In this document: one piece after another, positions 7,016 through 63,532 of the stretch
Numbering within the stretch: position 1 is the first letter of the stretch
Layout: each line of letters opens with the position of its first letter
Assembly: GCA_008632985.1 (NCBI GenBank)
Contig: QPGO01000119.1
Location: 1 to 64,000 of the forward strand
Source: Psammoneis japonica
Taxonomy: Eukaryota
DNA length: 64,000 bases
Reading direction: 5' to 3'
Translations under genes and position numbers: made by a program
Notes under the pieces: generated by a model
Database searches by the model: none
What the model saw: only the letters and a program-made list of their open reading frames with translations
Told to the model about the DNA's origin: nothing

Positions 7016-7652
7016 TGATGATACTTGGGTTTGTGTGCTTTGCTTGAGGGTTATGAAGGCGTCGGAAAGAACGAGTGGCTCTGTCGACAAGGGCAATTGC
7101 AAGTCGTAGTTTTGGTTCGGTGTTCGTAGGTTTCATAAATAAACTCTAGAATTCTACGACAAGATTTCCTACGATCGCAGCACGAATGGTCGTAGGCACT
7201 GGTATCGTTTGCACAGAGGCTAATCGTTGATGGGTTCTGAGAAGAACATTATTATAGCATTAAAGACTGAATAATATTTTTTGCTAATATTAAAATCTAC
7301 TCCTTCAATTTTGTATACTTATTAAATGGCCACTATGAAAAAGACATTCGATTATTTAGGGCGACATCATCGCAATGAGACATGACTCGGTGCAATTTTT
7401 GACGAAGAAATGACCATTTACTTAAGGGTCATTTTCCTGCTCTCGTTTGTATGGAAACCCGTATCTGCCATACCTACGTGGATTCCTACGGCGTGTCACA
7501 GTAGTATACCAAATTCTCCGACAGCTGCCTGCCCGAAGTCGCATTCATTCACAACGAAGACACCATCAACCCCATCACCACTCATCACGTTTCACAGTCC
7601 ATCAATCAACACACATGCCTCCAGTGAGATAAACACACATTTCACCACCAAC

Positions 7653-17574: not shown

Positions 17575-17847
17575 GGTGGAAGGACTGGCGCATCGTTGCA
17601 AAATGCCTTCATCCCATGCATCATCTCTTGATCCGTCCCATGCACTTCCTTCCTCACACTGTTCGAAAGCGACAACCACGTGGTGGGAAAGAAAAACGCC
17701 ACCCACCCATGATGATGACGTCACGAAATGTCTTTGCCCGCCCGCCGACCGCGCCGACCGGCACCGCAGCGTCTCGGCCGCCGGCCCGCGAACTGCAAAG
17801 GGATGATCTATCTTGCAGAGAAGTGCGTTCCTTGCCATGGACAACTA

Positions 17848-18549
17848 ACTCTCCGACCACCAGAACCTCAAGTTGCTCATGCTGGTTCACATGAAGTCCA
17901 TTCTTGTGCACTGCAACTCCCCAAAGGACCAAAACTTCAGCTCAGCAAAGAGCCCCAGAGCTTCTGCAAAGAACTGCTGAAAAATGCTTGTTCTCTGCCC
18001 TTGTTCTCCAAAGCTGGAGTGCGGCAAAGGGCCCTCTTTCTTCTTGCACTTTTTTGCCCCCCTGGAACAAGCCAGAGTTGGGAGCAATGATTGCAGTGCC
18101 AGAAATGTTGCATCTCAAGAAGAAAATGATGCTGGCTGCCCCGCTGAGACCCTCGGCTGTTGAAAAAATGTGTGTGCACATGCAGCCCAGAGCAGCTGAG
18201 ATCTTTGAAAACACACAAGCATCAAACATTGCTCAGCAGGCACATGATGTTCAAGCATTGCAGTTGAGCCCATGACCGCCAGCCACACCAAAATTTCCAG
18301 CGCCGGCAGCCAGCTTTTTTGATCGCCTCTGGACAGCTTCCACTCCCAAAGCATCTTGTGCAGCAGAAATGTTCGCACAGGTGAGAGAATCAGTCAGAGT
18401 CAACTGAGGATGCAAGAAGATGCCATTCACCTTTCCACCACTGGGAATCACCACCTTGGAAGGCAATGTCTCGAAACAGCTGCTCACTCCATCGCGCGCC
18501 CAGCCACGCCGAGCGAACACTTTCTGTGCGAAACATTCCGTTGAATTCG
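17848..18549. other. ~700-bp TpA-free intergenic block (probable decayed repeat)
   Basis: No TA dinucleotide found by eye between 17848 and 18549; rich in TG/CA; no recognisable product. Confidence 0.65.
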
Positions 18550-37950: not shown

Positions 37951-39933
37951 CTACTTGGAGCAAAGCGGAAGTGCATCTTTCTTCAGTTTCTTTGTCATGG
38001 CCCGGACCCCTCTTCGCGCTCTCGACACTGCTTTCTTGAATTCCTTGTCAGTTCGTTTCTCCTTGGCCCACGTTAACCATGTGGTTTCCATTTCATCAAG
38101 AAAACTCTCTTGTAGGACTCCCTGGCCTCTCATGCGCTTGATGAAATCTCGAAGGAGATTGATGGAGCAGGTACTTGCGACCCTGCCAATCGAGGTAAAG
38201 CGAGGATCCGTCATTTGTAGTTCTACAAGATACTTTGTTGCTTCCATGAGGCGAAAGAGAGAATGGACTGCTTGTCCACGGTTCGACATGATGCGCCTTG
38301 AGAATAAAATTTTGTCGTATGCGACTTTGTTTTTTCCATCTATTGTCGTAGTATCCGGATAATACTTCCTCAGCAAATTGTCAAGGCACGACGTGTAGGC
38401 ACAGTTAACCTTGTTTAACTTGGGCGGAAACGGATTCGTCTTTGCGCTGCTATCAAACTCGAAAATTCTAGAAACATATTGGTCATCACCAGAACGCATT
38501 ATCGCGAACTTTCCACGGTATGCTTTGATTCCTCCTTCGTGATTCTTGTCCGAGTCAAAATGAACCAAGTCCGCACCCTCCTGTATCCATTTAGAACGCA
38601 CGAGCTTGAACTTTTGAGCCACATCTTTGTTTTGGCTGACCTTACTGGCGAGCAGAAGATGAATACCATCGTCAGACAAGGTGACTTCTGTACCCGAACA
38701 GTATACTGAGTCGCCACATTCGTCGAGGATCCTAAGCGAACTTGTCTCTCGCCACGAAGATGCTTTCCAATCATAGATACGAATGTACTTCGGATCACTG
38801 CGGGCAGTGGGAGGGCCAATAGCCAATCGATTTCCGTCAGCTGACATGGACAAAAGCGTTCCATTGATCTTACTTCCTCTGCGAGTCCAAGAGGACGATT
38901 TCCTCTGGCGATAAACTTCAACCATTGAATTCGCCCAGTAGTCGGGAAACGGAGTATCCAGCCTCGTACTGACAACAACAGTTTCGCCGTTGCCGGACAT
39001 GCTTACTCCTTCTTGATGACCTTGGAGAAATCCAAGAGAATGACCAATGGATCCGATTTGCTTCCACAAACTTCCACTATTGTCATATATTTTCACATCT
39101 CTACTGTTAGCTATCATGATGCGACGCCCGTTGTCGGATAAAGACACGTCGATTCCCAATTTTTCATTCATACGTGTACCATTGAAGGTCGCAAGGACAT
39201 TCCACCATTGTCCGTTCCATTCGTGGATGTTGACGTACCCAAAGTTCGAACACGCGTCAAAGCAGTTGTAGTCATCATCTCCGTCATCGTCATCAAATCG
39301 CGGGTAACGATCATCGTCCTCGCACCTGCTGCATTCACTGCTTGCAAACGCATAGCCCGCGGCGAGACGCGATCCATCCGCAGAGACAGATTTACTGCTC
39401 CCGTCGAATCTACCATGGAAACCAAATCGAGACCCCAATTCTTCCCAGAACGGCGATATGCCAGAGGTTTCATCAAGGTAAAAGACTTGTTCAACGGCTT
39501 CATATAACCTCTGGCGCGAAACAAAAAAACGCTTTCCGTCTTTTGATAGTTCGCTTCGAGACCACTCAAAATCGAACTTTAAATCATCCCCCAGCTGTTT
39601 CCACTCTGGAGGGACGCCGAGATTCCTACCACGCTGATGTGATTCTTCGAGACGTTGATCAGACGTTTTTAGCTGGCGCATCACGTTGTTGGGTCCAGCA
39701 TGATGAGCTCCTGCATATCCGATTGCAGCATCGAGCTCACCATTTACGGCCTTCCACGGTTCATTCGTAAGAGCATCGTTACTCACATTTCCGTGACTCA
39801 AACGATTAGAAGCGATAGTAATGCCAATCATCACCAGCTGCGCGATGAGCATTGACCCAAGAACAAAAGATGCCACCAACGCTACGGGCGGTTGCAAGAG
39901 TTCTTGGCGACGCTTCTTTCCGATTCCGTACAT
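37951..39933 (-). CDS. Membrane-anchored beta-propeller-like repeat protein of unknown function
   Basis: 660-aa ORF with N-terminal TM helix and repeated VS(L/M)SxDGxRLAxG and WxQxG motifs. Confidence 0.65.
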   Translation of the reverse strand: MYGIGKKRRQELLQPPVALVASFVLGSMLIAQLVMIGITIASNRLSHGNVSNDALTNEPWKAVNGELDAAIGYAGAHHAGPNNVMRQLKTSDQRLEESHQRGRNLGVPPEWKQLGDDLKFDFEWSRSELSKDGKRFFVSRQRLYEAVEQVFYLDETSGISPFWEELGSRFGFHGRFDGSSKSVSADGSRLAAGYAFASSECSRCEDDDRYPRFDDDDGDDDYNCFDACSNFGYVNIHEWNGQWWNVLATFNGTRMNEKLGIDVSLSDNGRRIMIANSRDVKIYDNSGSLWKQIGSIGHSLGFLQGHQEGVSMSGNGETVVVSTRLDTPFPDYWANSMVEVYRQRKSSSWTRRGSKINGTLLSMSADGNRLAIGPPTARSDPKYIRIYDWKASSWRETSSLRILDECGDSVYCSGTEVTLSDDGIHLLLASKVSQNKDVAQKFKLVRSKWIQEGADLVHFDSDKNHEGGIKAYRGKFAIMRSGDDQYVSRIFEFDSSAKTNPFPPKLNKVNCAYTSCLDNLLRKYYPDTTTIDGKNKVAYDKILFSRRIMSNRGQAVHSLFRLMEATKYLVELQMTDPRFTSIGRVASTCSINLLRDFIKRMRGQGVLQESFLDEMETTWLTWAKEKRTDKEFKKAVSRARRGVRAMTKKLKKDALPLCSK

Positions 39934-40249
39934 TACGACACGTTTCTTGGTGCTATCAGCGCCGCTTTTTGGTCAACAATGCTAGAGAAGTGTTGCGGAC
40001 AGCAGGCGTAGAAGGTTATTGACATCAAACATCAAGTCATCAGTCATCAAGTCACCCCACATGATGATCTCGAACGAGAAGGGTTCTCATTTTTTTGAAA
40101 CAATTAAGCGGACGTTGAACAGACAGACAAGTACCGGTCGACGCGACGCGACGAGCAGGTAGTCAATGTTACAGTCATCTATCTCTACATAACATAGTCT
40201 CTACTCTACTAGAGTAGAGCTCTAGCTAGAGTAGCTACTCTCTACTCTA

Positions 40250-41430: not shown

Positions 41431-44096
41431 CTAGCAGTACTCAGCATGATCCAAGACCTCATCCAGTTTTTTCAGTGATTGGTGCACACGTTCCCAGCCT
41501 GCCTGTTCTATGCATAACCCAGAAAGGATTCGTTCGTTAAGGTGTGACATTTCCTGAGTGTGACTCATGACTCGCATAGCCAACCGGTCCGGAGGTGCTT
41601 GATTCTCACGAATAAACAGAACAGACCTGGAATGGTACAAGCGCTCCTTTGGGGGAGGTTTTTCTTCCATGGTGGATTCTTCAAAGGTTACCGATGGCCG
41701 TCTTTCGGGAGTCCCCGACGGCGGATCATCATCTTCCTCGCCAACAGAGAGAGCATCGTGCGCGGCGACATCCACCTTGGTTTCTTTTCCTTCATTAGCC
41801 TTCTCGTAGTGGTGCTGGAAGTGTGTAGAAGCATCGCTGGCTCTCGCGACAGAATCCGAAATACCTGAGACCAAAACGGAAGTAGTACCGGGGCCGCGTT
41901 GGTCCTTTGATCTGGCAGACTCGCGATGATCTCGTATCATCTTGCTCACCACGACCTGTTCACCATTCCAAATCAGCTTCAGTTTGGGATACGTCAATCG
42001 GGTGCTGATGCTCGTGGAAATAAAAGTCACAATGACCACTTTGGAAATGTACGGAATGTCAGGACTCGCCGATGGATCTTTCGAAATAACCACGACAGCG
42101 GATCCAAGGCCCGCAACAAACAGAGATGATATCAATGCAAAAGATACGGAAGCGGCTTCATTGAACATACCCGGCAAATTTCGAGACTTCTGCGCTTCAA
42201 TTAGAGCTGCAAACAATGTAATTAGAGGTACGCACGTGGTTGCCAGGAAGTAAATCTGCTCTCGGTCCGTTCCGCATTCGTAGCGTCCATCTGATTCCTG
42301 CGCATTCATGTCAACCTGGAGTTGAGGTGAAAATACGGCTAATCCCACAATCTCAAGAACAACCATAGGAAGCGTCACCAGAATGATAATGAGCCACAGT
42401 CGGCATGTAGTGAATTGTAGTCGAATGCTCTTTTGACGGTTCAAAGAGTGCTTCTCTTTCCACCTCTGCAGTGCGCGAACAAATCTTGGAGGATCTGCTG
42501 CACTTGCCGGTACTTCCTGAGGCTCTGCTTCTGTCGATAACTCGCTATTGATACCACCCATACTGCTTGAAACGCCACTTTCTCCAGCCACACTCGTGTT
42601 GCGGTTCATGAGAGCTCTCTTCCAATTCTTAAAATTCTGCTTTCTTTCACGAGAATTAGTCTTGCCAGAGTTCCAATTCATCAGTGGTGCCATTATTGCG
42701 AGTATGCGTCGTAAACGCCCAAGAACAATGGCCAACATGAGCTGAATGGGAATGGTGGTCATTGGATTCTGCAAGTAGCAGTGAGCATTGGACTTTGGGT
42801 TGTACAAGACGCTACACAGCGTTGCGAAGAATCCCGCAAACTGCAGCAAGAGTAAAAACTCGCACTGCGCCAGTTTCATGACGGAGTGCTTGCGATGACG
42901 CCATGTAGAACTCATAAAGAAGACCAACGCCAAGCCGGCTACGGCAATGATAACGTACGAAACAACCTCCATTGCCAGGCTAACTGATTGAATAGTAGGC
43001 TTTTCATAGTACGTGACAGAACGCTGGCTCAAGAGGTTGGCCACATCGAACTTGTAAGCCGCCTGCTCGTTACTGGTTGTGTTACTCAGAAAGAATTCAA
43101 AGGCTGCGAGAGGAAGATAGTTTCCTGGGACCGAGACTTGGACATCCACATCCAGATGAAACTCAAACTCCGTCTCATTCGTGATGTTCACGGGAATGAG
43201 GAAGAACTCTGAGGCAAGGTGATACAGTTGCTGTCGCTCCTCGTGCTGTTGACAATGTTGTTTCGCGGCAAAAAAGGATTAGAAAAAAAATAGTTCAATC
43301 AACAACGTCGGCCAGCTATCCACTCTCTGTGATGTACAACAATACTCACGTAATGCAAACCGTCATGATATTGAGAAAGCCCATGTTCCTGATTGTACTC
43401 TTCCCCATGATTTACGATCGTTCGCAAATACAATTTTCTTCTTTTTCTTCCATCATGACGATCTGGATGAGCACTGTGTTCTTTCATGCGGCGTTCATGT
43501 CCCCCGTCGTGATCGTCTCCATCCACATGAATATGCGATTCCAGTTCGTCGTGCCGGCCCAGAATAAACGGAGAGCACAGATTCCCATTGACAGGACAAA
43601 ACTCAATCCGAAACCCAACATCGTGCAGTCCGTCTGACGAATAGAAAAAGGAATCCTCTGGTAGCCCGTAGACTTGTCTGAGAACTTCCAAATTAACCCG
43701 GGCTACTACGTGATAGGTGTAGTACCGACCTGTCCTTAAACGATAGCTTCCACGGAATTGTTCCGGTAAGATGTCGAGAAACACAGCAGTACCGTCCCAG
43801 CAGGAACTCTGCAAGGATGTGGGGCCTGCTACAAAATTTGGCTCGAGGTCCGAGTGCCAATTGACTCCATCAAAATCACGAACGTGGTCGTCATCGTCAA
43901 CGGTGTTGTTTGTGCGATTTTGAAACAAAGGTGCCGACCAGCATATGGGATCTGTCCCGTTGACATTGTCGTATCCTGTTTCAGTGTAGACTTCTCCTGG
44001 GACTTGAGACCGGATCTCAGGCACCCACAACAGAAGCAGTAAGAGAAGCAACCGCAGCAGAAAAAGCGAAGGAACTATTTCCGGTATTGGCCTCAT
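41431..44096 (-). CDS. Class C-like (7tm_3) G-protein-coupled receptor with signal peptide
   Basis: Signal peptide in ORF 43299-44096; seven hydrophobic segments in ORF 41431-43191 with RKHSVMKLAQCEFL, LPGMFNEA and YPKL motifs typical of GABA-B-like 7tm_3 receptors. Confidence 0.75.
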
Positions 44097-44361
44097 TGGT
44101 TCTTAAAATACCCAAGCCCGCTTTCTTGTTATTGCATATGTACAGTATCTCTAGAGACCTAGAGAGAACAAAGACAAACTTTGAACGCTACTTGCAGATA
44201 TTTTCAACGCAGCAAGCAGCCATCAGCCATCAGCAGCATCGCACCTTCGCATCGTCGATCGTCGATCGCTCTACCTGTACCAATCGCCCAAATCTGCGGA
44301 GGCCGTACGACGTACAGTCATTTTTTGTCAAAGTCATTTTGGACATTTTCCACTTCTTGCA

Positions 44362-44796
44362 TGTGCAGTGTGCCTCGCCACTGGACAACACGGCGAGACC
44401 GTGCATAAGCCTCTTGTACGTGGCAACGTAGTGTTGTTAACACGTACCTGGGAAGCACGACCACAGGAGGGCGTGGCTCTAGGTCTTAGGCAATTCCAGA
44501 AGGATGCTAAGAGAGCATCCGTGTGAAGCACACTGGCCCGTCGTCTGGCCCACCATGGCAGCATGATTCCACACGATGACATCACTCGTGCGCAGCGTGT
44601 GATGGCTTGACTCGCACGATCCACAATGCGAGCGCACGATCGATTTGATGCGATCCCAATGCGAACGAACAGGGATTTGGCAAGATTCCCCATTCACACG
44701 ATCCCATTTTCTCTGCTCCAAGCTGGCTCATGATTTTCACAACGACAAAGTTGCAACACATCTTCTTTTCAGCGCCTGGCACATGCACAGGGCACA
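44362..44796 (+). repeat. 5' LTR
   Basis: Ungapped alignment with 49152-49586; starts TGTG, ends CACA. Confidence 0.93.
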
Positions 44797-44855
44797 GTGA
44801 TGTCACTCTCGCATGTTGTGCGAGGTGACGAAATCTGTAGAAACGAAACTGCGAA

Positions 44856-46040
44856 ATGTTGGCAGGACCGACAAATCTTAAAACGACCATGAAGAAGCGG
44901 ACCGAGCCGCCGATTCCGTTCGCACGGCCGGAGAAGAAAGAGCTGCAGCAGGGCGAGTGCCAGACATTCAAGCTGCGCAACAACCCCACTGATCCGGATG
45001 GTCCAACGCACGAGATGGGCATTCCGCACCTTTCCATGGCTGCATGCGAGATGCTCCCAATCTTTCTGCGCAACGTGGGTCGCGTGCACGAAGGACAAAA
45101 CATCACGACCGGGCCAGCGAAATTTGCCCTCATGCGTGACCCACTGCAGGGTGATGCTCTGACGTCATTTGACAATGCCGTTGACAAGCAGGCATCCCAA
45201 ACCAATGCTGCGTGCGCAGCATGCGTCGCCAAGCTAAAGGAAAGCATCTTCCCACATGGGGCGGCACTGTTGCAGAAGCGTCATCTGAGGCGCTTCATGC
45301 GCAAGCCCGCAGAGGTTTCCACTCGTGACTGCGTCGCGAGGGCTGTTGAAATCAACGGCCACATCTCTCAGTTTCCACCCGTGATGGAGGACAAAGAAGC
45401 ACTGGCACTGTCACCTGATGACGAACTGTGCGACATGTTCGAGTGCGGTGTGCCGAGCGCATGGCAGAAGTTCATGACGCTACAGAATTTTGACCCGTTG
45501 GCGCATGCCATCGCCGAATTCACACAGTTCTGTGAGTGCACCGAGCAGGTCGAGCTTGCCGAAGGTAACCGCGACCAACGTGCTGGGGTCCCACGCAAGC
45601 GGGGACGTAGAACGGACAATTCTGAGTCGTTGATCACGACCCAACCGAACACCCACGTGAAACGTGTCAAGACTGGATGTTCCAACAACGGAGGCAGCAA
45701 GCCCAACACAAAACCTCGGAATGAGGAAGATGTTGACACTCTCATCGGATCGAAGGTCGAGGAGTTCTTTGCCAACGCTCAGAAAAAGCGTAAGGCACGC
45801 AAGGAGGAGCTCAATCACTTCCGCGACCTCAACTTAAGTGATTCCGAAGACTCGGACACTTGCCGACACGATGCAGGTAGTTTTAATACATTAGATGAAT
45901 GTATAAATGAACAACTGAATTACCATCGTACACGTGTTGTAGGCCAATCCCGCAAACGAGTTAAAAAGACTCATCTTACTCCAATCTTGTTTATAGCTAT
46001 GAATGCTAAACATGGCAAGGGGCAAGACTCAAACCATTAA
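44856..46040 (+). pseudogene. gag: gag-like ORF of the Gypsy element
   Basis: ORF directly after the 5' LTR with QKRHLRRFMRKP and retrotransposon gag-like composition; Tyr absent until ~45920. Confidence 0.7.
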
Positions 46041-49000
46041 GGCACTATTAGATAGTGGCGCCAGCAGCACTCTACTCGACAGTCGATACTGTAAACGTCT
46101 GCGAAGCCATTCAACGGCTGAGACAAACTGGACTACGGTAGCAGGCTCGTTCAGTACGTCTAACGACTGTACCGTTAAATTTTGGTTACCAGAATTATAC
46201 GAAACTCTTAGAACTTAAATATACCGTCCACGTACACAACGGAAAGTTGGGCAAGTACGATATGATTATTGGACGTGACATTCTGGAGACACAAGGCATT
46301 GATATTGTCTTCTCTAAACAGATGATAGAGTGGCCATTAGTCAATGGAGAAGTACCAATGAGGCACGTAGATGCTACGGTAGAAACCTCCTTCTATCTTC
46401 AAGATCCAGAAGCTTTAGCTTCGGAAACCGACCGGATTTCGCGTATTTTAGACGCTAAGTACGCGCCGGCCTGCCTCAAGGACATAACGCGAGGGGCAAT
46501 AAATTTTCTATAGTTCAACAAAACGACCTTTTGGCACTATTGAAACGCCATGAGTCCTTATTTGATGGGACATTAGGAGAATGGAAGGGAGAACCCTACC
46601 ATATCCAACTCAAGGAGGGTGTAGAACCATACCACGCTCGTCCGTATAAAGTACCTCGTGCGTACGAAGCTACGCTACGTAAAGAAGTAGAACGCCTAGT
46701 ACGTATCGGTGTTCTCAAACGCGTTAACCGATCCCAATGGGCAGCTCCATCATTTATCATACCGAAGAAAGATTTAACGGTACGCTTTATTAATGATTTC
46801 AGAGAGCTGAATAAACGGATCAAGCGATTGCCTTATCCGATTCCTCATGTCCAAGATATGCTGCTCAAGCTCGAAGGCTTTATGTGGGCTACATCGCTGG
46901 ATTTAAACATCGGCCATTGTCACATCCGATTGGACACTGATGGCAAGAAGCTCTGCACGCTCATCTTCCCGTGGGGCAAGTATGAGATGCAGGCATTGCC
47001 CATGGGATTGTGCAACTCGCCAGACATTTTCCAAGAACGCATGTCAGGCTCATTTGAAGATCTGTCGTTCGTTCGAACGTGCTCAGATGACCTTCTCGTT
47101 GTGACGAAAGGCACCCACGAAGATCACCTCAACAAACTTGAAGAAGTTTTGTTGAGGGTCCAGAAGGCAGGACTAAAAGTCAACGCAACTAAATCTCACT
47201 TCTGTCAAACCCAATTAGAACACTTGGGTTGTCTGGTTGACAGAGACGGGGTGCGACCAATGCCCAACAAAGTCGATGCCATTGAGCGAATCGCGATCCC
47301 AACCAACAAACGCGACCTGCGCTCATTTGTTGGCATGGTGAACTGCCACCGCGACACGTGGATTGGACATTCTGAAGTCTTGGCTCCGCCAACACGACTC
47401 ACAAGCGAGGCTGTCAAGTGGGAGTGGACATCCGTTGAAGACGAGGCATTCGAAGCCGTTGAACGGGTGACATCGGATGATATTTTGTTGTCACATCCTG
47501 ATTTTAACAAACCCTTTGAGATGCGCGCCGATGCCTCTAAATGTCAATTGGGAGCAGTTGCATCCCAAGACAATAAAACCTGTCACCTTTTGCAGCAGAA
47601 AGCTTGACAGTGCGCAATTAAATCATGCAACAACGGAGAGAGAATCACTCGCCATTGTGGAGACATTGAAAGAATTTCGAACGACTCTCCTTGGTCATCG
47701 CACAACTGCATGCACTGATCATAAAAATCTTGCGCACAAAGTGTTCAATGCCGAGCGCGTTGTGCGCTGGCGGTTGACATGCGAAGAATGCGGTCCCGAA
47801 TTACGCTGTGTCAAGGGTGCCCACAACCTGGTCGCTGACGCTCTCAGTCGCCTTCGACTGGCACCCAGCTTGCCTTCCGAGGCCAATCCGGATGCAACAG
47901 ACACTCCATTGAGTCGTCCTTTGCATGAAGCTTTTAATGCAGATGCGCAAGATGAGATGTCTCTGCCCATTGGCTTCAAGCGCATTCAAAAAGCACAACA
48001 AAAGGACAAGCGCCTGCTCTCACGAGCCAAGGACTCGTCCGACTGCTCCATTCGCGCATGTCGTGGGGGAGGGTCATCACGACAGTTAATCTGTCATAAG
48101 GACAAAATCGCAGTGCCACAGTCATTGCAGGTTCCGCCATCTGAATGGTGCCACGAGACACTGTGTCATCCATGTGAGACACGCACGGAAATGTCCATTG
48201 CCCAGCACTTCTGTTGGCCCAGTGTGAGGTCTACGGTGCATTCTACGTGTGTTGAGTGCGATCGATGCCAGAAGACAAAACGCCGAATGCAGCATTGTGG
48301 GAAGCCACCAGAAAAGGTCGCAGAGACAATTCCATGGGAGACTCCATGCATGGATGTGACAGGGCCACATAAAATTCAAAGACGCGGAAAGGACACTTTG
48401 CAATTGTGGGCAGTCACAATGATTGACCCAGCAACCGGGTGGTTCGAGATTAAAGAAGTGTCTGCGAAACGCGCAGACGTCGCAGCAAACGTCGTGGAAC
48501 AAACGTGGCTATGCAGACATCCGTGGCCAACCCAGGTGGTTTGTGACCGTGGGACAGAATTTATGGCAGAATTCAGCCAGATGATTAAAAATGACTGTGG
48601 GATTTTGAAGAAACCCACAAGCAAACGGAATCCACAGGCGAGTGCCACAGTGGAGCGTGTGCACCAGACACTTGGTGACATGGTGCGTTCCTTTTCAGCA
48701 CAGGATGTGGAGCTGGACGAAGATGACCCATGGAGTGGCATCCTCTCCGCAGCAGCCTTTGCCACCAGAGCTGCGGCACATGCGACCACGCGTGCAAGTC
48801 CCATGCAATTGGTCTTCGGACACGATGCGGTTTTGTCTGTTGCTCATCGTGCCAAGTGGAAGCACATGGAAACCAGAAAGCAGAAGCTTGTCCACTTAAA
48901 CAACAAGCGTGAAAATCAGAAACGCAAGGAGTGTCAACATGCCGCAGGGCAATTGGCACTCATCAAACAGGAACAATCCTCTAAATGCGGTTCTGACAGT

Positions 49001-49115
49001 TGTGCAGGACCCGCCAGAGTTGTCCGTGTGCATGACAACGGCACGTTGCGCATCCAGAATGGAGTGCTGACAGATGCGTGCAATCTACGGCAGATTGTGC
49101 CCCATCACCAGCAAG
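46003..49115 (+). pseudogene. pol: pol (protease, RT, RNase H, integrase), frameshifted and hypermutated
   Basis: LLDSGAS protease; SQWAAPSFIIPKK, DFRELNK, LPMGL and CSDD (YxDD position) in RT; ADAS and TDHKNL in RNase H; HxxxxH...CxxC, DRGTEF and ERVH in integrase. Confidence 0.9.
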
Positions 49116-49151
49116 ACATCCTGTCACTTGACGGCCCTGATCATGGGGGAG

Positions 49152-49586
49152 TGTGCAGCATGCCTTGCCACTGGACAACATGGCGAGACTGTGCATGAGC
49201 CTCTTGTGCGTGGCAACGCAGCATTGTCAACACGCACCTGGGAAGCACGACCACAGGAGGGCGTGGCTCCAGGTCTCAGGCAATTCCAGAAGGATGCTGA
49301 GAGAGCATCCGTGTGAAGCACACTGGCCCATCGTCTGGCCCACGATGGCAGCGTGATTCCACACGATGACATCACTCGTGCGCAGCGTGTGATGGCTTGA
49401 TTCGCATGATCCATGATGCGAACGCACGATCGATTTGATGCGATCCCAATGTGAACGAATGGGGATTTGGCAAGATTCCCTGTTCACATGATCCCATTTT
49501 CTCTGGTCTAAACTAGCTCACAATTTTCACAACGACAAAGTCGCAACACATCTTCTTTTCAATGCCTGGCACATGCATGGGGCACA
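49152..49586 (+). repeat. 3' LTR
   Basis: Follows the PPT at 49145-49151; aligns to 44362-44796. Confidence 0.93.
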
Positions 49587-49739
49587 TGTGTCACCTTGAT
49601 CAAATTCATTTTTCCATCTCACAAAATCGATCTTTGAGATCACCTCTGCAGCTGCAGCCATGACTTCTCCATGGAGAACACACACATCAACAACTGTTGC
49701 ATTGAAATCTTGGGCAACCACTCTCTTTCCTGTGGAGAC

Positions 49740-52040
49740 TCTGGCAAAGCCCTGGTGCATCTTCTTGTTCCAGTTCCCCCATCATGGCCCAAACGCTTCT
49801 TCGAGCTCTTGACACAGCTTTCTTGAATTCATTGTCAGCTCTTTTCTCTTTGACCCATTCCAGCTGTGTGGTTTCAATTTCATCAAGAAAAATCTCGTCA
49901 AGGGATGATTTGCCAATCAGGTGCTTGATGAGATCTCGCAGGAGGCAGATTGATGGGGTGGAGCAGGTGGTGTGTTTGCAACCCTGCCAACTGCGGCAAA
50001 GCTGGCACTGGTCTTTTGCAGCTCTGCAAAATGCTTTGTTGCTTCCATGAGGTGAAAGAGAGAATGGACTGCTCATCCATGGTTTGACATGATGTGCCCA
50101 GAGAACAAAAAATCTTGTCGCGCGCAACTTTGTTTTCTGCATCCAGTGTCAGAGCATCTGCAAAATGCTTCATCAGCAAGTTGCCAAGGCATGACATGTG
50201 TGCACAATTGACCTTGTGCAACTTGGACAGAAACAGGTTTGTCTCAGTGCTGCTGTCAAACTCAAAAATTCTAAAAACATGGGGACCATCACCAGAGGAG
50301 TGCGTGCTTGCAAATTTTTCATCATGGCAGGCTTTGATTTCTCCAGTTCAGTTCATCAAGTTGGCACCCTCCTGCACCCAATTAGAACCCACAAGCTTGA
50401 GCTTCTGAGCAACACATTTCAGTTTGCCAACCCTGCTTGCAAGCAAAAGATGAGTGCCGTCGTCAGACATGGTGACTTGCACATCACAGTGACCCCAGTC
50501 TTTTCATTTGTCGAGAATCCAAAGTGAGCTTGTCTCTTGCCACGATGATGCTTTCCAATCATAGATGCAAATGTGCTTCAGATCACTGCAGGTGGTGGGA
50601 GGGCCAACAGCCAACCAATTTCCATGAACTGACATGGCCAACAGTGTGCTCCGTTGATCTTGCAGCCTCTGCAAGTCCAAGACAACTGCTTCCTCTCTGC
50701 ATGGCGACAAACTTCAACCTTGAAATTCTCCCAGCATTGAGATGACAGAGCATGCAGTCTTTTGCTGAGAGCAACAGCTTTGCTGTTTCCAGACATGCTT
50801 CTTCTGTTTGCACACCTGCTTGCACAGAACATGAGAGAACAACCAACAGATCTGGTTGGCTCCAACAAACTTCCAATGTTGTCACACATTTTTGCATGCT
50901 TGTTGGCATCTGTCAGTGTGATCCGATGGCCATTGTGTGACAAGGACACTTGGCTTCCCATTTCTTTCCCTGCATGAGGACCAACAAAGTCCCAGCGACA
51001 TTTCGCTTTTGTTCACTCTGCTCTGACTCCACTCATGAATTTTGTCCAGCCCAAACAAGTCAAGACATTGGTGGGCACACACGCAGTCATTGTGCTGAAA
51101 CTTGCAAAACCCATCTTTGCAAATGGCATCGTCATCATCATCATCATCATCATCAAAATCACAGTCATTGTTGTCTCACATGCTGCAGTCACTGTTGGTC
51201 TTTGGATGGCCCATGGCAAGATGCAATGCCCATCTGGTGCTGCCCACACGGGTTCATGCCTCTCATTGCAAGCATCGCACATGCCACCAAATTGCCCCCC
51301 CATTCCTTTCCAGAGTGGCTTTTTGCCAGATCTCTCATGGAGTTCAAAAGTGCATTTGCTGGTCTTGCATTCGTTGAGGCCACTGTCAGCATGGCAGGCA
51401 GTCCTGACGGAACCAAAAATGCTTCCCGTCTTTTGAGACATGGCTCAACTGCAAGACTTTTTCATGTGCGCACTCTAAAGTTTCCCCAAGCTGTTTCCAC
51501 TCGCAGGGGATGCCCAGATTGCCACCATGACGCAGGTGCTCTTGGGCACAATGACCAGATGTTTTCAGCCTCTGCATGTTGTTTCGTCTCATGTCATCAC
51601 AGGCTGCTCCTGGATGCCTGATGGAAGCTTTAAATCCACCAGCCATCGCCGACCTTTGATTGTTCATTCTTCGTCCGAGCTCCTTTGGAACCATTGCCCG
51701 TCTTTGAATGAGACCAAGAGACAGTGATGGCAACCATTCCCAACTGTGCTGGTGACATCGAACCCAGGACAATGGAAGCCAAAGCTGCTGGTCATGCTGC
51801 TTGTCGTGGACGCTTGTTTCCGACTCCGGGCATGCTCCACTTCGATTTGCTTTCTTGGTGCCGTCAGGCATTTGCTGAAGTGAAACAGTGGCACAGGATT
51901 CACCAATGAGAGAGGAGTGTTATGATGACAGGTCTGGTTGACAACAAGAGCCAAGAGAAGCTCCGTTTCCTTGTGTTTGATCTCTGATCTCGAAAATGAT
52001 GAACACGGGAGGGTTCTCATTTTTTGAAACATTTAGCGCG
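49740..52040 (-). pseudogene. Hypermutated paralog of the 37951-39933 gene, including its upstream flank
   Basis: Collinear similarity, e.g. 50012-50098 vs 38211-38297, and GGGTTCTCATTTTTTGAAAC at ~52011 vs ~40081. Reading frame broken; about 6 TA in 2.3 kb. Confidence 0.88.
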
Positions 52041-53176: not shown

Positions 53177-55059
53177 TCAAACGCCTTCGACAAGCAGATC
53201 TGGCATATCCTCCAAGACGGACGTTTCCATGTCTAGTTCAGACTCAAAGTCCGACACGTCACCAAGAGAAAAGGATCCGGCGCTTTCTTGCTTTCCAACG
53301 CGACCACCCGTTGGATGCACTTCATGAAAGGGCGGGAAGGGATCGTAGTTGTCCGCCATGTCTGGAAACACCGACGACGACCAGGTTTCACCATACTGCA
53401 CGGCCTGACCATGCTTGGAGATGCTCGGATAGCTTTCCGTCGTATCCATGTCGAAATTCACATCTACAAAGTCACAGGGTGATGTTGTTGTATCCATCAT
53501 GACATTGTCATCCATGACAACGTCATCACGCATGTCGTCGTCGGCGGCGGCGACAACGTTTCCTCCTGCGGCCCACGCATGAGCAAAGTCAAGCAACGGG
53601 TCTTCACCCATCTCTTCTGGAACGCAATAGGCATTGTCGGGATTATGAAACGTTTCACTGACTTGTTGGATCTTGCGGTCCCAATCCAAATCCACCACAT
53701 TGTCATCCTGTCGTGTGTCCGATCCGTAATGATGCGCTTGTGGCGTAGGTGGTCCGAAAGGAAGCGACGGCTGTTGCGGCTGTCCACAATCAGTATACAA
53801 ATGGTACCCCGCAACAGGAGGAGGTGGCGGCGGAGGAGAGCCCATGACTTGACCATGATGCATCGTTGAAGGATCCGGTCTGTTGTAGTGGCCAGGGGTC
53901 GGCGCCGGAGAGTAAACGTGATGATTGGGTGGCGATGCTCCAATAGCATCCGCGTAGGGTCCTGGAGAGTACGCTCCATTTGGTACAACAACTCCTCCTG
54001 GATTGGGCGTCACGACATGACCACCAAACACAAGCTGCTGCTGCTGTTGTTGCTTTTCTTTTTGTTCCCGATCATTGGCCATGAACTTGTAATCCAAAAA
54101 GTGATGGGGTTTCTTCTTCTTTTCAACCGATGCCTTGAGACTACGCTTGCGCATATTGGTGGTCCAATTCACAACCTGTCCGTGGTTGAGACCCGTCTGC
54201 TTGCACAACTCATCAATTTGTGTCGAGGTTGGAAAGGGATGTTGCTGTGTATCGGTTGTTTTTGAAACGAAACGAGTGTGTGTGTGTGAGCGACAATTTG
54301 GATAAAGGACGAGTTTCAAACACAGACGAGGCGTTCAATACAATACACACGTACCACATGATCCAGCATCCAATTCATCAAGATATCCGTCTGCCACTTG
54401 GAATACTTGTTGCAGATTGCATCACCCGACGTGGACGAACGAGGCTTGGGAGGAGGTGGACTCGCCACGACTGCAGCAACCGAAACAATTCCATTATTCG
54501 CTTCTTGTTGTTGTTGATAGGCAGCATGCTCTTTGGCTTGTGCAATATACTTGGTACAACGTTCCATTTCTTGTTGCAAAATATGAAAATTCTCATTCAA
54601 GAGTGAATCGGTCATGTGGTACGTTCCTCGTTGAATGACGGGTGGATTCTTGTAGTTGCGTTGCAAGTGTTGTTGTTGCATACGCGATACGGCATTGATG
54701 ACTTGTTGCGGATCCATTTCACTCGCGGTGCGCTTGGGTTCGTCATTGTTGTTATTGTTATGTAAATTCGATGCGGCCTCTCGGATTTGCTTGACACGTA
54801 CCGCCAAAGCCAAGAGACTTGGAAAGTCTTCATGACATAGCATGCGATCGACATCATCCAAAAGAACCGGAGCTTGTTCTTGCTTTTTCAAATCGATGTT
54901 GTTTCCTCGAGACAATGCCGTACCTTGCAATGGCGGACCGCTAGTAGCGGATCTCATGGGCGATGCTACGGTTTCCTCCTTTAACGACGGAGTACCAGGA
55001 GAAGTAGTGGCCGCCATGGGTGGAGGCGTTGTCGGCTTTTGCTTGTTCAAGTCCGCCAT
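53177..55059 (-). CDS. TALE-class (KN-type) homeodomain transcription factor; intron 54245-54354
   Basis: Spliced homeodomain KWQTDILMNWMLDHV/QHPFPTSTQIDELCKQTGLNHGQVVNWTTNMRKR. Confidence 0.85.
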
Positions 55060-59551: not shown

Positions 59552-59924
59552 GTTGGAAGTATCACCTGTGCACGAAATGGTTGCAAGTGTTGGTGTCGTT
59601 TGGAGAAAACGACACAAAAAAGGACAAAGTGTTTGTGTTGTTGCGTTGTTTGCCGTTTGACTTTTGTTCGAGAACACGAAAAAATATAACGGTCGTGGAG
59701 TCGTGATGCGCGCTCGCGTTGAATCGCGCGACTCGATTTCACAAGACATTGTGACGTCATGGGCCAACGGAAAATCCAACCAAAACCAAAGATGGACAGT
59801 ATTTATCGCAGATCAAAATCGTCCGATAATGACCAAGACATCGACACATGTCTCGGTCATTTCATTATACGAATACATCACGACCACACCATTGTTTCAC
59901 ATGGTTGGGTCGCATTTATTTTGG

Positions 59925-61664
59925 CGCCAAAGTCTTTTTTGCATGTGTGGCTGCGCGTGGTCGCCAGCAGATGAAGTGGCTGCTGGAATCTGTGTCATGT
60001 CTTTGCTGTGGACTGATGCATTTTCTCATCATGTTTTGGCAGTGTGGCAGCTCCTGCTTTTCAGCAGGGGGTGCTGGAACAACAGCAAGTTGCCAGCATG
60101 ATCTCTGGTGTGGTTGACTCTTCTTTCTTTTGTGCCTTTGCCCAGGGGGCAGGAGCCAAATTTTCAAACTCTGGATGTCATTGTTTTTGCAGATGTTTTT
60201 AGCCAATGCAGCAAAACAGCTGTGTGGTGACAAACAGCTCAACTGGAAAAGTTTGCCGCTGCATTTTTGTGGAAAGGAGCAGCAGTGCACAGCTTCTTGT
60301 GGCAAGTGTCCAAAGCCAAGGTGTGGGAGGCAAGAGCAGCCACAGCAAAAGACTGCCACTGCACATGTCTTCAAGTGCCAGCTGACAGACTTGTTGAAGG
60401 GTGCAATGCTGGGGGTGCATGTTGCTGGGGCCCAACAAGCAACTCAACAAAAAATTCGAACCAAGAGCAGCGCTTTTTGGACACGCCAGAGCTGCGGAAG
60501 CAGCAGCTTGGCAAAATTTTGGCAGGGGGGCGCTGCTGCACAAGCTTTTCAGTGCTCAAAGCAGTGCTCCTGCTGTCCCATGCTTGGCAGGCAGTGCAGC
60601 GCAATTGATCTTGGGAAGCTTGCTCTGTGGAAGCTTTTGAAGCTCTTGAGCCCCACGAAGCTCTTGAGCCAAGAAGCTGCAAATCTCGTTTCCCACAATG
60701 TGGCTTTGACTGGCTGCAACGTGGGCCAGCATGGGTGGCCAAGCCCCATTTTGATTGCTTCAAGAAGGTGCCTGCAGCCCATGAAGCCACAAGAGCTGGG
60801 TGTTGCCAAATGTGCTGCACGCGGCACTGGCATTGCTTGTTCTTGCAAAGCAGCGCCAAATCACCCAGCAGCACTTGCTTTTTCATTTCTTTTGATGCCA
60901 ACACACAAGCACAGGTGCACACTCCTGCTGTGCAGTGCATCAACACAGCAGCAGGTCAAATTGTCACACGCATGGGCAAAAAGCTGGAGGCGCCGCAAGT
61001 GGCACAACAAAGGTCAGCTTGCGCAATGGCAGCACATGATGCTTCCAGCAGATCGGAGTTGGTGGCATGCTGCACAAGAAATGCCATTGCATGGTTGTTG
61101 TGCAGTGTTGCACAGCAGATCTTGGAAACCTTTTTAGCTGTTTTCAAAGCTTTTGAGTTGGGCAGCACGGCTGAGCCAAGTTGCAAATTTTGCTGCCTGT
61201 GCAGCAGCTTTTGGTTGGTGGCAGCAGTCAGTTGGCTCTTGGCTCTGGCAAGGCCAGGTTTTTTGTTGCTCAGTTGTTTCAAGAAGGTGCACAGCTCACA
61301 AGGCTGCATGTGGCATTTTTGTTTTTTGTTGCAGAGCAAAACCTCAAATCACACAGGAGCTTGGTGCTTTTTCATTGCTTTTGACGAGGACATCAAAAAA
61401 CACACCAGCAGGTGGTGCACCCACTGTGCAGTCAGGGGCACAGCAAGGGGGGGGGGGGGGGGGGCGGAGTGGCTCAGCCTCCCCAGTCTTCATGAAAACC
61501 CACCAGCCCACGAGCCACACGAGCTCTACAAAACCTTTCACAAGGACATTGCAGCGGTCTCTCTCTCTCTTTTGCCACACTGCTGGCTGTGCTGACATGC
61601 ACGCAGCGTGTGTCACACGTGCACCTGTTTCATTGTTTTTGATGAGTGGCACTGTCAATGCATG
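59925..61664. other. ~1.7-kb TpA- and CpG-depleted block (probable decayed repeat)
   Basis: About 3 TA by eye (60200, 61135, 61527); internal similarity ~60840-60900 vs ~61328-61390; no recognisable product. Confidence 0.65.
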
Positions 61665-62010
61665 TTAGATTAAAAAAGAGCTGTTGAAAGGGTTTGGCAA
61701 CGCTGGCGCCTTTTCTCTCGGTTAACACACATCTTGGTTGAAATAAATTGGTTGAAGTAACTTTTTCTCTCAAGCAGTGGTCTTCGCTGGATCTTGGCCT
61801 GTACGGTTGTTTAAGGGAGACATTCACGACTGGGCATTTATGCCGTCCAAGGATGTCGTACTAAGTTCGATACGTGAAATAGATAGCTGGAGACATATGA
61901 CCGAATGGGGCATATTTATTCAATATCCGCCCAACAGATTGGTTTCATAATTTTTCGCTCGCTTCCCATTGTTGCAACAAAAACACAACACCTGTATTAT
62001 CAAGGCAACC

Positions 62011-63109: not shown

Positions 63110-63532
63110 TGACCGTGCAAAACTGTTTTTTCTAAATGTTGGGATGTAGAAGTGGTGAAGCCGTGTATGTTGTTTTAGTCGTGGATTCCTTTTTTGGGCT
63201 TAATCTGTGACAGGCACAAATTAATGTCAGGGGTATTTTTTCTCCCAACTCCTCACAGATTAAGTCGGTCCTGTCACAGATTAACTTTTTTTATGGAATC
63301 TTACTTAATCACACCGCTGCCTTTAATCATCCCAAACTGGAGTTTGCTAAAAGTCTCACTCCCTGGCCCCTAACATAAACCCTAAACCCTAACCCTGACC
63401 GTGCAAAACTGTTTTTTCTAAATGTTGGGATGTAGAAGTGGTGAAGCCGTGTATGTTGTTTTAGTCGTGGATTCCTTTTTTGGGCTTAATCTGTGACAGG
63501 CACAAATTAATCTGTCAGGGGTATTTTTTCTC
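63110..63532. repeat. Near-identical 135/137-bp direct repeat with internal inverted repeats and a telomere-like tract (small non-autonomous element-like)
   Basis: 63110-63244 equals 63396-63532 apart from a 2-nt indel. CCTCACAGATTAAGTCGGTCCTGTCACAGATTAA (63251-63284) is inverted relative to TTAATCTGTGACAGG...TTAATCTGTCAGG. CCCTAAACCCTAACCCT lies at 63380-63396. Confidence 0.75.

Follow-up and report, generated by a model that had tools for sequence, protein, structure and literature searches.

TpA hypermutation of inserted and duplicated DNA in the diatom Psammoneis japonica

Introduction

Why should a diatom genome contain long tracts from which the dinucleotide TA has almost vanished, next to segments in which it is present at a normal level? 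The question is raised by a 64-kb stretch of Psammoneis japonica DNA (positions 1 to 64,000 of contig QPGO01000119.1, assembly GCA_008632985.1), here called the window. An earlier note on this DNA described five TA-poor blocks with an excess of TG and CA, and proposed a DNA-level mutator that makes A:T to G:C changes specifically at 5'-TA in repeats and gene copies. The blocks are borne out, their limits being right to within a few hundred bases, and the polarised tests described below support such a mutator.

TA deserts in the window

Across the 64 kb, the observed/expected ratio (o/e) is 0.44 for TA and 1.33 for both TG and CA. A two-state HMM on P(A|T) delimits six deserts, to which no strand applies:

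4820-6801: TA desert, mostly inside a repeat with terminal inverted repeats at 4907-5028 and 6897-7018
17509-18547: TA desert, filling the spacer between an ABC1-kinase gene and an ABC-transporter gene
24565-32216: TA desert, the largest, with 19 TA in 7,652 bp and a CG o/e of 0.27
44518-45475: TA desert, a segment of the gypsy element described below
48592-52033: TA desert
59919-61665: TA desert with 3 TA in 1,747 bp, a CG o/e of 0.27 and a TG/CA o/e of 1.88

The TA o/e is 0.03–0.07 in the six deserts versus 0.53–0.64 in the segments between them. Pooled, the deserts hold 46 TA in 16,820 bp, where the normal segments, with 3.96 TA per 100 bp, would lead one to expect about 665, and the longest run without a single TA extends over 1,605 bp (27381-28986; ln P = -63). 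The TG/CA o/e in the deserts is 1.55–1.88. CG loss joins TA loss in only some of them, the CG o/e ranging from 0.27 to 1.0: four of the six show strong conversion of CG to TG/CA (0.27–0.63), the gypsy segment none (1.0).

The hypermutation is restricted to inserted or duplicated DNA, its boundaries being sharp to about 100–250 bp. Desert edges lie within about 30–250 bp of the ends of LTRs, inverted repeats or a duplication, such targets being recognised in three of the six deserts. The first desert begins about 90 bp to the left of the left inverted-repeat arm, and the right arm lies outside it. The DNA transposon of the earlier note is a candidate one, recognised by the terminal inverted repeat of the 4907-7018 repeat (127 nt, 82% match) and a weak match to DDE_3 at 5670-5981 (E 0.0012; 19.2 bits, below the cut-off of 28.6). 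A search of 78 desert ORFs for protein families gave a single weak match; no family was recognised among the 41 ORFs of the largest desert, which has tandem repeats of about 144 bp at 27350-28250. The block originally drawn from 44.5 to 52.0 kb is indeed TA-poor, but it is not uniform, since it contains a TA-rich patch (about 45830-46880), which the earlier note does not mention, and a partly depleted stretch (46900-48586).

A Ty3/gypsy element with mutated and unmutated parts

Much of that block is occupied by an element at 44362-49594, a Ty3/gypsy LTR retrotransposon by its LTR pair and its protease-RT-RNase H-integrase order:

44362-44806, plus strand: 5' LTR, 445 bp, starting with TG and matching 49152-49594
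44841-46040, plus strand: Gag-like open frame of 399 aa, mostly TA desert, GC about 55%
45830-46880, plus strand: unmutated TA-rich patch of 1.05 kb, spanning protease and the N-terminal RT region
45939-49105, plus strand: frameshifted Pol (protease-RT-RNase H-integrase), from Pfam and from tblastn with 20 Pol homologues
49152-49594, plus strand: 3' LTR, 443 bp, preceded by a purine-rich tract and converted almost completely, with 0.45 TA per 100 bp

The Gag-like frame has no Pfam match. Pol matches RVT_1, RT_RNaseH, RT_RNaseH_2 and Integrase_H2C2 (rve falls below the cut-off), and its region is collinear with homologues of 1,050–1,100 aa. The unmutated patch has 8.2 TA per 100 bp, a TA o/e of about 1 and a GC content of 43.9%, and 79 of its 87 conserved columns have the residue of the outgroup consensus. 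The stretch at 46900-48586 has about 1–2 TA per 100 bp, and GC reaches 51–55% in the mutated parts. From 46880 onward (3') Pol is hypermutated. The YxDD motif of RT reads CSDD, and the RNase H-integrase frame has no Tyr in 575 residues and 10.3% Cys + His; in all 120 homologues among the matches listed, Tyr makes up 2.9–4.4%. Columns in which 70% or more of 40 outgroup Pol proteins have Tyr number 23 in the desert part and 3 in the unmutated patch; Tyr is kept in 1 of the former (11 have become Cys and 9 His) and in all 3 of the latter. Among conserved Arg columns of the same Pol, 27 of 32 are kept.

The two LTRs are identical at 90.6% of nucleotides and at 99.5% when only purine or pyrimidine is scored. 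They differ at 42 of 443 positions, by 39 transitions and 3 transversions, and 34 of these differences fall on the axis between TA/CG and TG/CA. The outer 150 bp or so of the 5' LTR retain 8 TA that read TG or CA in the 3' LTR, the desert starting at about 44518. At 7 sites one LTR has TG and the other CA, which points to independent conversion of the two copies, and 20 further sites are converted in one LTR only. No target-site duplication was found at the element ends (TTGCA versus CCTTG); the LTRs may therefore stem from different insertions, which weakens arguments about timing. Taken as a rough proxy with a very wide error, the Tyr columns (1 of 23 kept) and the LTR transversions (3 in 443) suggest that TpA mutates at about 10^3 times the per-site transversion rate.

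TA loss is separable from CpG decay and faster than it. In the segment at 44518-45475 the TA o/e is 0.06 while the CG o/e is 1.0, and the conserved Arg columns of the element are mostly kept (27 of 32, as above); CG decay thus has the look of a second process that runs more slowly. Among 70 related gypsy loci recovered from metagenomes the TA o/e is 0.56–1.18, with 0.25 as the lowest 1-kb window, so the depletion is not inherent in this TE lineage; none has a desert, in a search that favoured intact copies because one of its two patterns contained Tyr. Three of these relatives (L052, L015 and L049) have a CG o/e of 0.04–0.2 with normal TA. The unmutated 1.05-kb patch in mid-element does not fit a simple domain-wide process.

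A host gene and its duplicate

In which direction did the changes run? The window contains both a host gene and a mutated copy of it:

37951-39972, minus strand: parent gene, a 673-aa ORF with a normal TA o/e of 0.53–0.65
49744-52035, minus strand: hypermutated duplicate of this gene, TA o/e about 0.05, CG o/e 0.2–0.4

The parent gene has distant relatives only (22–30% identity), which carry PF14312. Its duplicate is single-copy (depth about 72 in read run X1), and the homology ends at the right edge of the desert; the parent, 11.8 kb away, is untouched. From parent to duplicate, 3 of 46 TA are kept, while 18 have become TG and 17 CA; in the reverse direction there is no A>G among 6 strand-wise TA positions. 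TA is the ancestral state, and both strands have been attacked independently, TG and CA being equally frequent (18:18) and randomly ordered over 1.2 kb (21 runs versus 18.9 expected). Per strand, A>G occurs at 0.40 after a 5' T versus 0.11–0.13 after A, C or G. CG has been lost as well: 8 of 67 are kept, 22 have become TG and 20 CA, and C>T stands at 0.34 at CG versus 0.09–0.14 before other bases.

All three internal comparisons from which the rule was originally drawn (LTR pair, Pol motifs, gene versus pseudogene) hold when computed. The rule itself, TA to TG or CA with CG to TG/CA alongside, is seen in the LTR pair, in the gene and its duplicate, and against the 40 outgroup Pols.

Flanking context of the mutated A

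The wider context of the mutated A is 5'-TAY > 5'-TAR, which is new in the present analysis. The numbers are small, with 54 TA sites from three alignments in which both LTR directions were used; A>G per strand falls from TAC (23 of 38, 0.61) through TAT (12 of 29, 0.41) and TAA (8 of 23, 0.35) to TAG (5 of 26, 0.19). YTAR makes up 40 of 72 surviving TAs but 317 of 1,835 background TAs (P = 1e-12), RTAY 2 of 72 but 580 of 1,835. The flanks also bear on the outcome: RTAR goes to CA rather than TG by 7:2, and YTAY to TG rather than CA by 7:1 (P = 0.015).

A preference for T on the 5' side and a pyrimidine on the 3' side agrees with the signature of TadA/ADAT-type enzymes. These and the editors derived from them favour pyrimidines on both sides of the target A (U or T on the 5' side); the order here is TAC > TAT > TAA > TAG. 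For the derived editors, the available part of PMC12528748 gives YAC for ABE3.1 and YAY>YAR for ABE8e-YA. Natural TadA/ADAT enzymes act on tRNA, DNA activity being engineered or, according to the portion of bioRxiv 10.64898/2026.01.13.699255 at hand, reported only for a few ADAT2s.

What process removes TA?

We consider it probable, at roughly 70%, that a host process in the diatom mutates TpA in DNA in place, through adenine deamination by a recruited enzyme of the TadA/ADAT2 type. Its targets would be transposable elements, other repeats and a duplicated gene copy. A single kind of transition, A:T to G:C on either strand, would turn TA into TG or CA, and conversion would go on until hardly any TA remains. 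A TadA/ADAT2-type deaminase would convert adenine to hypoxanthine in the DNA, presumably once it has been brought to DNA that is silenced or foreign; a mechanism of this kind has been proposed for the chlorarachniophyte Bigelowiella natans. The targets would be permanently inactivated, with Tyr replaced by Cys or His, Ile by Val, Thr or Met, and GC raised by about 8–10 points. The change of CG to TG/CA would be ordinary 5-methylcytosine decay in the older deserts.

Adenine deamination is our best guess at a candidate chemistry. TA is palindromic, so the sequence alone fits either deamination of A or, on the opposite strand, a modification of T with T to C. The same in-place targeting might thus operate through a TET/JBP-type dioxygenase that oxidises T in 5'-RTA to 5hmU or 5fU, which mispairs with G. 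Since TA to CA on one strand is TA to TG on the other, all counts fit equally well, the motif becoming 5'-RTA, and a dinoflagellate TET/JBP homologue makes repeat-enriched 5hmU that is linked to TE silencing, likewise a T modification in a SAR lineage (PMC11572971, as far as its available text goes). That 5hmU is an epigenetic mark, however, not shown to be mutagenic, and the same text gives no TpA context. The +1 pyrimidine preference on the A strand matches TadA-derived editors (PMC12528748, available part), and we regard thymine chemistry as unlikely.

Could the deserts reflect sequencing or assembly rather than mutation? Modified TA and CG in heterochromatin might be miscalled by a long-read base-caller, and the shift of both TA and CG to TG/CA is what strand-specific miscalling of modified A and C would be expected to produce. 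In the high-copy element, moreover, there are several places where no contig of read run X1 carries the window's base. (X1 has no platform on record and may be the assembly's own sample; its contigs were built from exact 31-mers, at a depth of 61–72, the longest being 315 kb, which speaks for accurate reads.) However, X1 contigs show 0 differences from the window over 49532-51117 and 1 over 51172-52040. Strand-majority long-read errors should give runs, whereas TG and CA alternate at random over 1.2 kb, and the deserts show ordinary divergence too, the gene and its duplicate differing by 112 transversions and 62 gap columns. The agreement with X1, together with the random 18:18 order, argues against a base-calling artefact, which we consider very improbable; the TA depletion is real DNA sequence. 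Other genomic copies in X1 differ by transitions at 293 of 306 variant places, and 23 of 30 transition rows, among those listed, fall on the TA/CG to TG/CA axis.

ADAR-like A-to-I editing of retroelement transcripts, fixed by reverse transcription, or editing of cDNA during retrotransposition might be invoked, given that the desert characterised best belongs to an LTR retrotransposon and that a 5' U is preferred by ADARs (cited in the available part of bioRxiv 10.64898/2026.01.13.699255). Yet the strands are equal (18:18) and in random order, the LTRs differ in outcome at 7 sites with 20 more converted in one LTR only, and conversion is near 100% at TA with background levels elsewhere. Conversion also extends to the repeat with terminal inverted repeats and to the host-gene duplicate, which is single-copy. 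RNA-level editing is extremely improbable, as the earlier note had also argued. That foreign DNA was TA-poor on arrival, or that TA is selected against, is scarcely credible: although TA is generally under-represented (o/e 0.53–0.64 in normal segments), the unmutated patch of the same element has an o/e of about 1 and its 70 relatives 0.56–1.18, the host-gene duplicate has lost 43 of 46 TA, and selection is not plausible because the affected sequences are broken pseudogenes.

Two cytosine-based processes were rejected. APOBEC/AID-type deamination gives clusters of C>T that are coordinated by strand and lie in TC or CC; here C>T is concentrated at CG and there is no strand clustering. CpG decay driven by 5mC fails as the whole signature, TA being lost where CG is intact (44518-45475).

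Comparison with known systems

The earlier note knew of no described pathway for such changes, and on this point it has been overtaken: hypermutation confined to TpA has been measured in mutation-accumulation lines of B. natans (Mettrop et al., bioRxiv 10.64898/2026.01.13.699255; all statements on this species rest on the part of the preprint available). Two viral insertions acquired 231 de novo mutations, of which 230 were A>G or T>C, these all being at TpA according to the paper, at about 6e-7 per site per generation, or some 1000 times the genomic baseline. TpA-depleted clusters enriched in CpA and TpG carry RT and DDE domains, and the authors propose an adenine deaminase of the ADAT2/TadA type.

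Both have A>G or T>C changes that are restricted to TpA and yield TpG or CpA according to strand, and both concern sharply bounded foreign DNA, single-copy DNA included. There are also differences. The hosts are a diatom (a stramenopile) here and a chlorarachniophyte (a rhizarian) there. The diatom deserts are saturated (TA o/e 0.03–0.07), whereas the NCLDV region of B. natans stands at 0.45, and the targets are an LTR retrotransposon, an inverted-repeat-bounded repeat and a duplicated host gene. B. natans showed no C to T component, whereas here CG is lost in most deserts, the older ones showing CpG decay. The TAY>TAR context has no counterpart in the accessible part of the preprint, where no trinucleotide or flanking context is mentioned. 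Finally, the B. natans mutations were observed de novo, whereas those of the diatom are read back from the sequence.

Fungal RIP is similar in that it, too, destroys repeats through heritable hypermutation of the DNA by transitions, with a dinucleotide signature left behind. It changes C:G to T:A mainly at CpA, makes TpA, lowers GC, mutates both copies of a duplication and requires a RID/DNMT4-type protein. RIP is rejected for the deserts, where TpA is destroyed, GC rises from 43.9% to 51–55%, and only the duplicate is mutated (TA o/e about 0.05), the parent gene being normal (0.53–0.65). Diatoms do possess DNMT4 relatives (PMC9998398, available part), but nothing ties these to A:T to G:C changes. 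The same source reports that diatom TEs are CG-methylated through DNMT5a; decay of 5mC explains the CG to TG/CA part of the pattern but cannot remove TA.

Significance

The pattern itself was described in 2026 in B. natans, to which the diatom adds a further, unrelated host; a literature search found no report of TpA hypermutation in a diatom. To our knowledge, the mutational genome defences recognised before the B. natans preprint all involved cytosine deamination or 5mC (RIP, APOBEC). A defence based on A:T to G:C changes would be of a different chemistry, and if it is due to a natural DNA adenine deaminase, it would be of interest for base editing. A saturated end-state in a diatom implies that the system is not a chlorarachniophyte peculiarity and may be widespread in SAR algae, with action beyond viral insertions, on ordinary transposons and a duplicated host gene. 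A wider proposal, which we offer only tentatively and hold to be somewhat doubtful, is that TpA-directed adenine deamination by a TadA/ADAT2-derived enzyme might be an old, heritable genome defence shared across SAR (rhizarians and diatoms), a "reverse RIP" wiping out stray copies of genes along with transposons and viral insertions, reaching saturation in diatoms and having TAY>TAR as the fingerprint of its enzyme. Any genome can be screened for the TAY>TAR fingerprint, and candidate enzymes can be compared with it.

The deserts also affect how genomes are annotated. They lack TAA and TAG stops and thus contain long false ORFs, and they defeat homology-based TE annotation (one weak match from 78 desert ORFs). 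Ages based on LTR divergence are inflated: the two LTRs differ at 9.5% of positions (39 transitions and 3 transversions in 443), as against 0.7% for transversions.

The TA deserts

Over the whole window TA is depleted (observed/expected ratio, o/e, 0.44), and TG and CA are both in excess (1.33 and 1.33). When the sequence is segmented with a two-state hidden Markov model (HMM) on P(A|T), six TA-poor segments, or deserts, are delimited in the window:

4820-6801, desert 1
17509-18547, desert 2
24565-32216, desert 3
44518-45475, desert 4a
48592-52033, desert 4b
59919-61665, desert 5

TA o/e is 0.03–0.07 in the deserts versus 0.53–0.64 in the intervening segments. Together the six (16,820 bp) contain 46 TA versus 665 predicted from the normal segments, which have 1,742 TA in 44,033 bp; the longest run without any TA measures 1,605 bp (ln P ~ −63). 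Desert TG/CA o/e is 1.55–1.88, and CG o/e ranges from 0.27 to 1.0. Both the o/e ratios and the HMM thus confirm the TA-poor, TG/CA-rich blocks with normal neighbours that had been described in an earlier note. Its block at 44.5–52.0 kb holds as a desert at 44518-45475 and 48592-52033 but is not uniform, being TA-rich at 45830-46880 (hereafter the patch) and only partially depleted at 46900-48586, within a gypsy element.

What do the deserts contain? Among 78 stop-to-stop open frames from four deserts, Pfam recognised no protein family in deserts 2, 3 and 5, and gave a weak DDE_3 match in desert 1 (5670-5981, E 0.0012, below cut-off). Matches to ArsD and DUF4336, also below the Pfam cut-off, were taken as chance. 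Self-comparison after purine/pyrimidine recoding found no further parent sequence for deserts 2, 3 and 5 within the window. Since deserts lack TAA and TAG, they have long overlapping open frames in several frames, which are unlikely to be genes and would lead gene callers astray. In desert 5, overlapping frames of 328–339 aa with no family match occur in several frames (e.g., 60118-61134 and 60609-61592, + strand). In the middle of desert 3, inside the 1,605-bp run, lies a tandem array (27350-28250, period ~144 bp) whose copies are 68–78% alike.

Direction of the change

The region 44362-49594 is a Ty3/gypsy LTR retrotransposon, followed directly by a diverged copy of a host gene from elsewhere in the window:

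37951-39972, parent gene, a 673-aa open reading frame
44362-44806 and 49152-49594, LTRs of the gypsy element
45939-49105, Pol of the gypsy element, frameshifted (tblastn, 20 full-length Pol homologues)
49744-~52035, duplicate of the parent gene, directly after the 3' LTR

Pol has Pfam matches to RVT_1, RT_RNaseH, RT_RNaseH_2 and Integrase_H2C2, with rve below cut-off; the 20 Pol homologues found no second gypsy element in the window. The earlier note had read a rule of TA to TG or CA from three internal comparisons (gene and duplicate, Pol motifs, LTR pair), and each of these was borne out.

The duplicate is 72% identical to the parent gene, or 87% after purine/pyrimidine recoding, and the homology ends at the right edge of desert 4b. 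Only 3 of 46 parent TA are kept, 18 having become TG and 17 CA; of 67 parent CG, 8 are kept, with 22 TG and 20 CA, and the remaining dinucleotides are 45–79% kept. Per strand, A>G from gene to duplicate occurs at 0.40 after 5'-T versus 0.11–0.13 after A, C or G, and C>T at 0.34 before G versus 0.09–0.14 before other bases. From duplicate to gene, A>G is seen at 0 of the 6 strand-wise TA positions that the duplicate offers. The only relatives of the parent gene are 14 distant proteins carrying PF14312; at 22–30% identity they are too distant to serve as outgroup, so that the asymmetry itself is the only thing that polarises this pair.

An outgroup is available for Pol. When 40 of 120 listed homologues (722 matches in all) were aligned with the two Pol frames of the window, columns conserved in at least 70% of the aligned homologues equalled the consensus at 346 of 473 places in the desert part and 79 of 87 in the patch. 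Of 23 conserved Tyr columns in the desert part, 1 still has Tyr, 11 have Cys and 9 have His, as TAY→TGY and TAY→CAY would give; all 3 such columns in the patch retain Tyr. Conserved Ile was kept in 12 of 35 columns (substitutes Val, 8; Thr, 6; Met, 3) and Arg in 27 of 32. The reverse transcriptase motif reads CSDD, and among the 575 residues of the RH-IN frame there is no Tyr and Cys+His make up 10.3% (Tyr is 2.9–4.4% in all 120 listed homologues).

The two LTRs differ by 39 transitions and 3 transversions over 443 aligned positions, and are 99.5% identical after purine/pyrimidine recoding. Ten sites pair TA in one copy with TG or CA in the other, and another ten pair CG with TG or CA. Seven are TG in one LTR and CA in the other, the outcome expected if an ancestral TA or CG had been converted independently in each copy. 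A further 8 differing positions fit none of these classes. Beside the neighbouring gene, the outermost ~150 bp of the 5' LTR still carry 8 TA that are lost from the 3' LTR. Taken with the other polarised comparisons, this supports the core of the earlier interpretation, a TpA-directed A:T→G:C mutator acting on repeats and gene copies.

Target and chemistry

The surviving desert TA (n=72, including those of the partly converted stretch) are biased in context, with 40 YTAR and 2 RTAY, versus 317 YTAR and 580 RTAY among 1,835 TA outside deserts (Fisher P=1e-12). In three alignments, ancestral RTAR became CA rather than TG by 7:2 and YTAY became TG rather than CA by 7:1 (P=0.015), and per-strand A>G was 23/38 at TAC, 12/29 at TAT, 8/23 at TAA and 5/26 at TAG. 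These counts give the target as 5'-T-A-Y if A is mutated or, equivalently, 5'-R-T-A if T is. The wider context, TAY>TAR, is new here.

The natural substrate of TadA is U33-A34-C35 of tRNA-Arg. Among TadA-derived editors, the reported preference is YAC for ABE3.1 and YAY>YAR for ABE8e-YA (PMC12528748). Thymine oxidation by TET/JBP enzymes is a live alternative to a putative adenine deamination: TA is palindromic, which keeps an attack on T viable, and such oxidation is reported to mark repeats in dinoflagellates (PMC11572971).

The unmutated patch

The patch (45830-46880, ~1.05 kb) has 8.2 TA per 100 bp, twice the density of normal DNA, with a GC content of 43.9% and TA o/e ~1. Its edges are sharp to ~100 bp, the left one lying near the gag/pol junction. 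The gypsy part of the window is matched by 5,597 contigs from one sequencing run, X1, with a summed depth of 9,300–35,600 versus ~52–86 in the unique part, which makes this a high-copy family. As the origin of the patch, ectopic gene conversion with an intact copy as donor seems most likely; the alternative is an assembly chimera in such a high-copy repeat.

No target-site duplication of the element was found (TTGCA upstream at 44357-44361, CCTTG downstream at 49594-49598), and recombination between two insertions may have produced the element. It is flanked by normal DNA at left and desert at right.

CpG decay, composition and rate

CpG decay accounts for the CG part of the pattern only. In the gypsy segment 44518-45475, TA o/e is 0.06 while CG o/e is 1.0, and in the duplicate, which is older, and in deserts 3 and 5 both are lost; TA loss thus came earlier and was faster. 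Moreover, 70 related gypsy elements from metagenomes have TA o/e of 0.56–1.18 (lowest 1-kb window, 0.25), and some have CG o/e down to 0.04 with normal TA. TA poverty is therefore neither a property of the transposon lineage nor a result of CpG decay alone. None of these 70 loci contains a TA desert, although the search favours intact copies and so does not speak against the process in other species. Three of the loci (L052, L015 and L049) have CG o/e of 0.04–0.13 with TA 0.62–0.73, showing that in other hosts CpG has decayed while TpA was retained. Normal genic DNA of the window (TA o/e 0.53–0.64) lies below both the patch (~1.0) and the 70 related elements (0.56–1.18). Slow leakage of the process across the genome could explain this, as could the usual TA deficit.

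A rough estimate suggests that the rate per TA is perhaps 10^3 times that of transversions per site, from 1 of 23 Tyr columns surviving versus 3 LTR transversions in 443 positions; it is based on three events and assumes that both LTRs came from one insertion. In mutation-accumulation lines of Bigelowiella natans, hypermutation is given as ~6e-7 per site per generation, in some lines only, versus 3.5e-10 (bioRxiv 10.64898/2026.01.13.699255).

Artefact and editing

Could the signal be a sequencing artefact? The X1 contigs (141 Mb in total, longest 315 kb; platform not on record) were built from exact 31-mers. One at depth 72 matches 49532-51117 with 0 differences, and another at depth 61 matches 51172-52040 with 1 difference. 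Exact 31-mer contigs at such depth require accurate reads, and in accurate reads a modified base is called as its parent base. X1 may nonetheless derive from the same sample as the assembly; two further runs, X2 and X3, had almost no coverage of the window. Among the X1 contigs, 293 of 306 variant places in the gypsy element are transitions.

Context of 30 transitions among 40 of 310 gypsy variant rows
Window TG or CA, other copies TA: 11 of 30
Window TA, other copies TG or CA: 4 of 30
Window TG or CA, other copies CG: 5 of 30
Window CG, other copies TG or CA: 3 of 30
Other contexts: 7 of 30

At 44719, 44809, 45052-45053, 45457, 46911, 47898, 49447 and 49506 all aligned X1 contigs differ from the window base; either this gypsy copy is inexactly represented in X1 or rare-copy variants did not make it into the contigs.

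In the gene–duplicate alignment, TA→TG and TA→CA are balanced (18:18) and randomly ordered (21 runs versus 18.9 expected), CG→TG and CG→CA stand at 23:21, and no strand-coordinated clusters were found; both strands were hit independently. This is at odds with single-strand RNA editing, with a processive single-stranded-DNA deaminase and with a strand-majority base miscall; ADAR-type and APOBEC-type editing failed the strand and context tests.

Targeting and precedent

The desert edges lie ~30–250 bp from the ends of inserted or duplicated DNA, with no spread into adjacent genes. The duplicate is single-copy (depth ~72 in X1) and the parent gene is untouched, so copy number by itself does not trigger the process, which, unlike RIP, is asymmetrical. 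Fungal RIP also mutates in the opposite direction. We infer targeting by silencing marks or small RNAs.

The earlier note knew of no described pathway, a statement now superseded by a 2026 preprint on TpA-only hypermutation in B. natans (bioRxiv 10.64898/2026.01.13.699255), which describes the same kind of process as is seen in the window. There, an integrated giant-virus region and a virophage region account for 231 of 302 nuclear mutations; 230 of these were A>G or T>C, stated to be all on TpA. The genome is reported to hold 124 clusters depleted in TpA and enriched in CpA+TpG, RT and DDE domains are enriched among its TpA-poor genes, and an ADAT2-type deaminase is the authors' proposed agent; the text mentions neither diatoms, CpG nor trinucleotide context. 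No report of the TpA→TpG/CpA signature was found in the diatom literature, and a wider full-text search gave the B. natans preprint only; a 2025 preprint on diatom transposable elements does not mention dinucleotides, TpA, hypermutation or deamination in its main text. The window thus holds the first diatom case found of a kind of process only recently described: saturated, on transposons and a gene duplicate, and with a TAY>TAR fingerprint.

Neighbouring sequence

Two genes of normal TA content flank the block at 44.5–52.0 kb:

41431-43278, − strand, 7tm_3 (class C GPCR-like) protein
53177-54334, − strand, Homeobox_KN protein

The diatom origin of the window shows in an ABC1-kinase/beta-lactamase gene, whose best named matches are from Amphora (62% identity), Corethron, Asterionellopsis and Pseudo-nitzschia. 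The open reading frame at 8373-10550 (+ strand) matches bZIP_1 and PAS_9, both just below the Pfam cut-offs, in an aureochrome-like layout, which is typical of photosynthetic stramenopiles. In non-desert DNA, a 135-bp direct repeat (63110-63244 and 63396-63532) has 98.5% identity between copies 286 bp apart.
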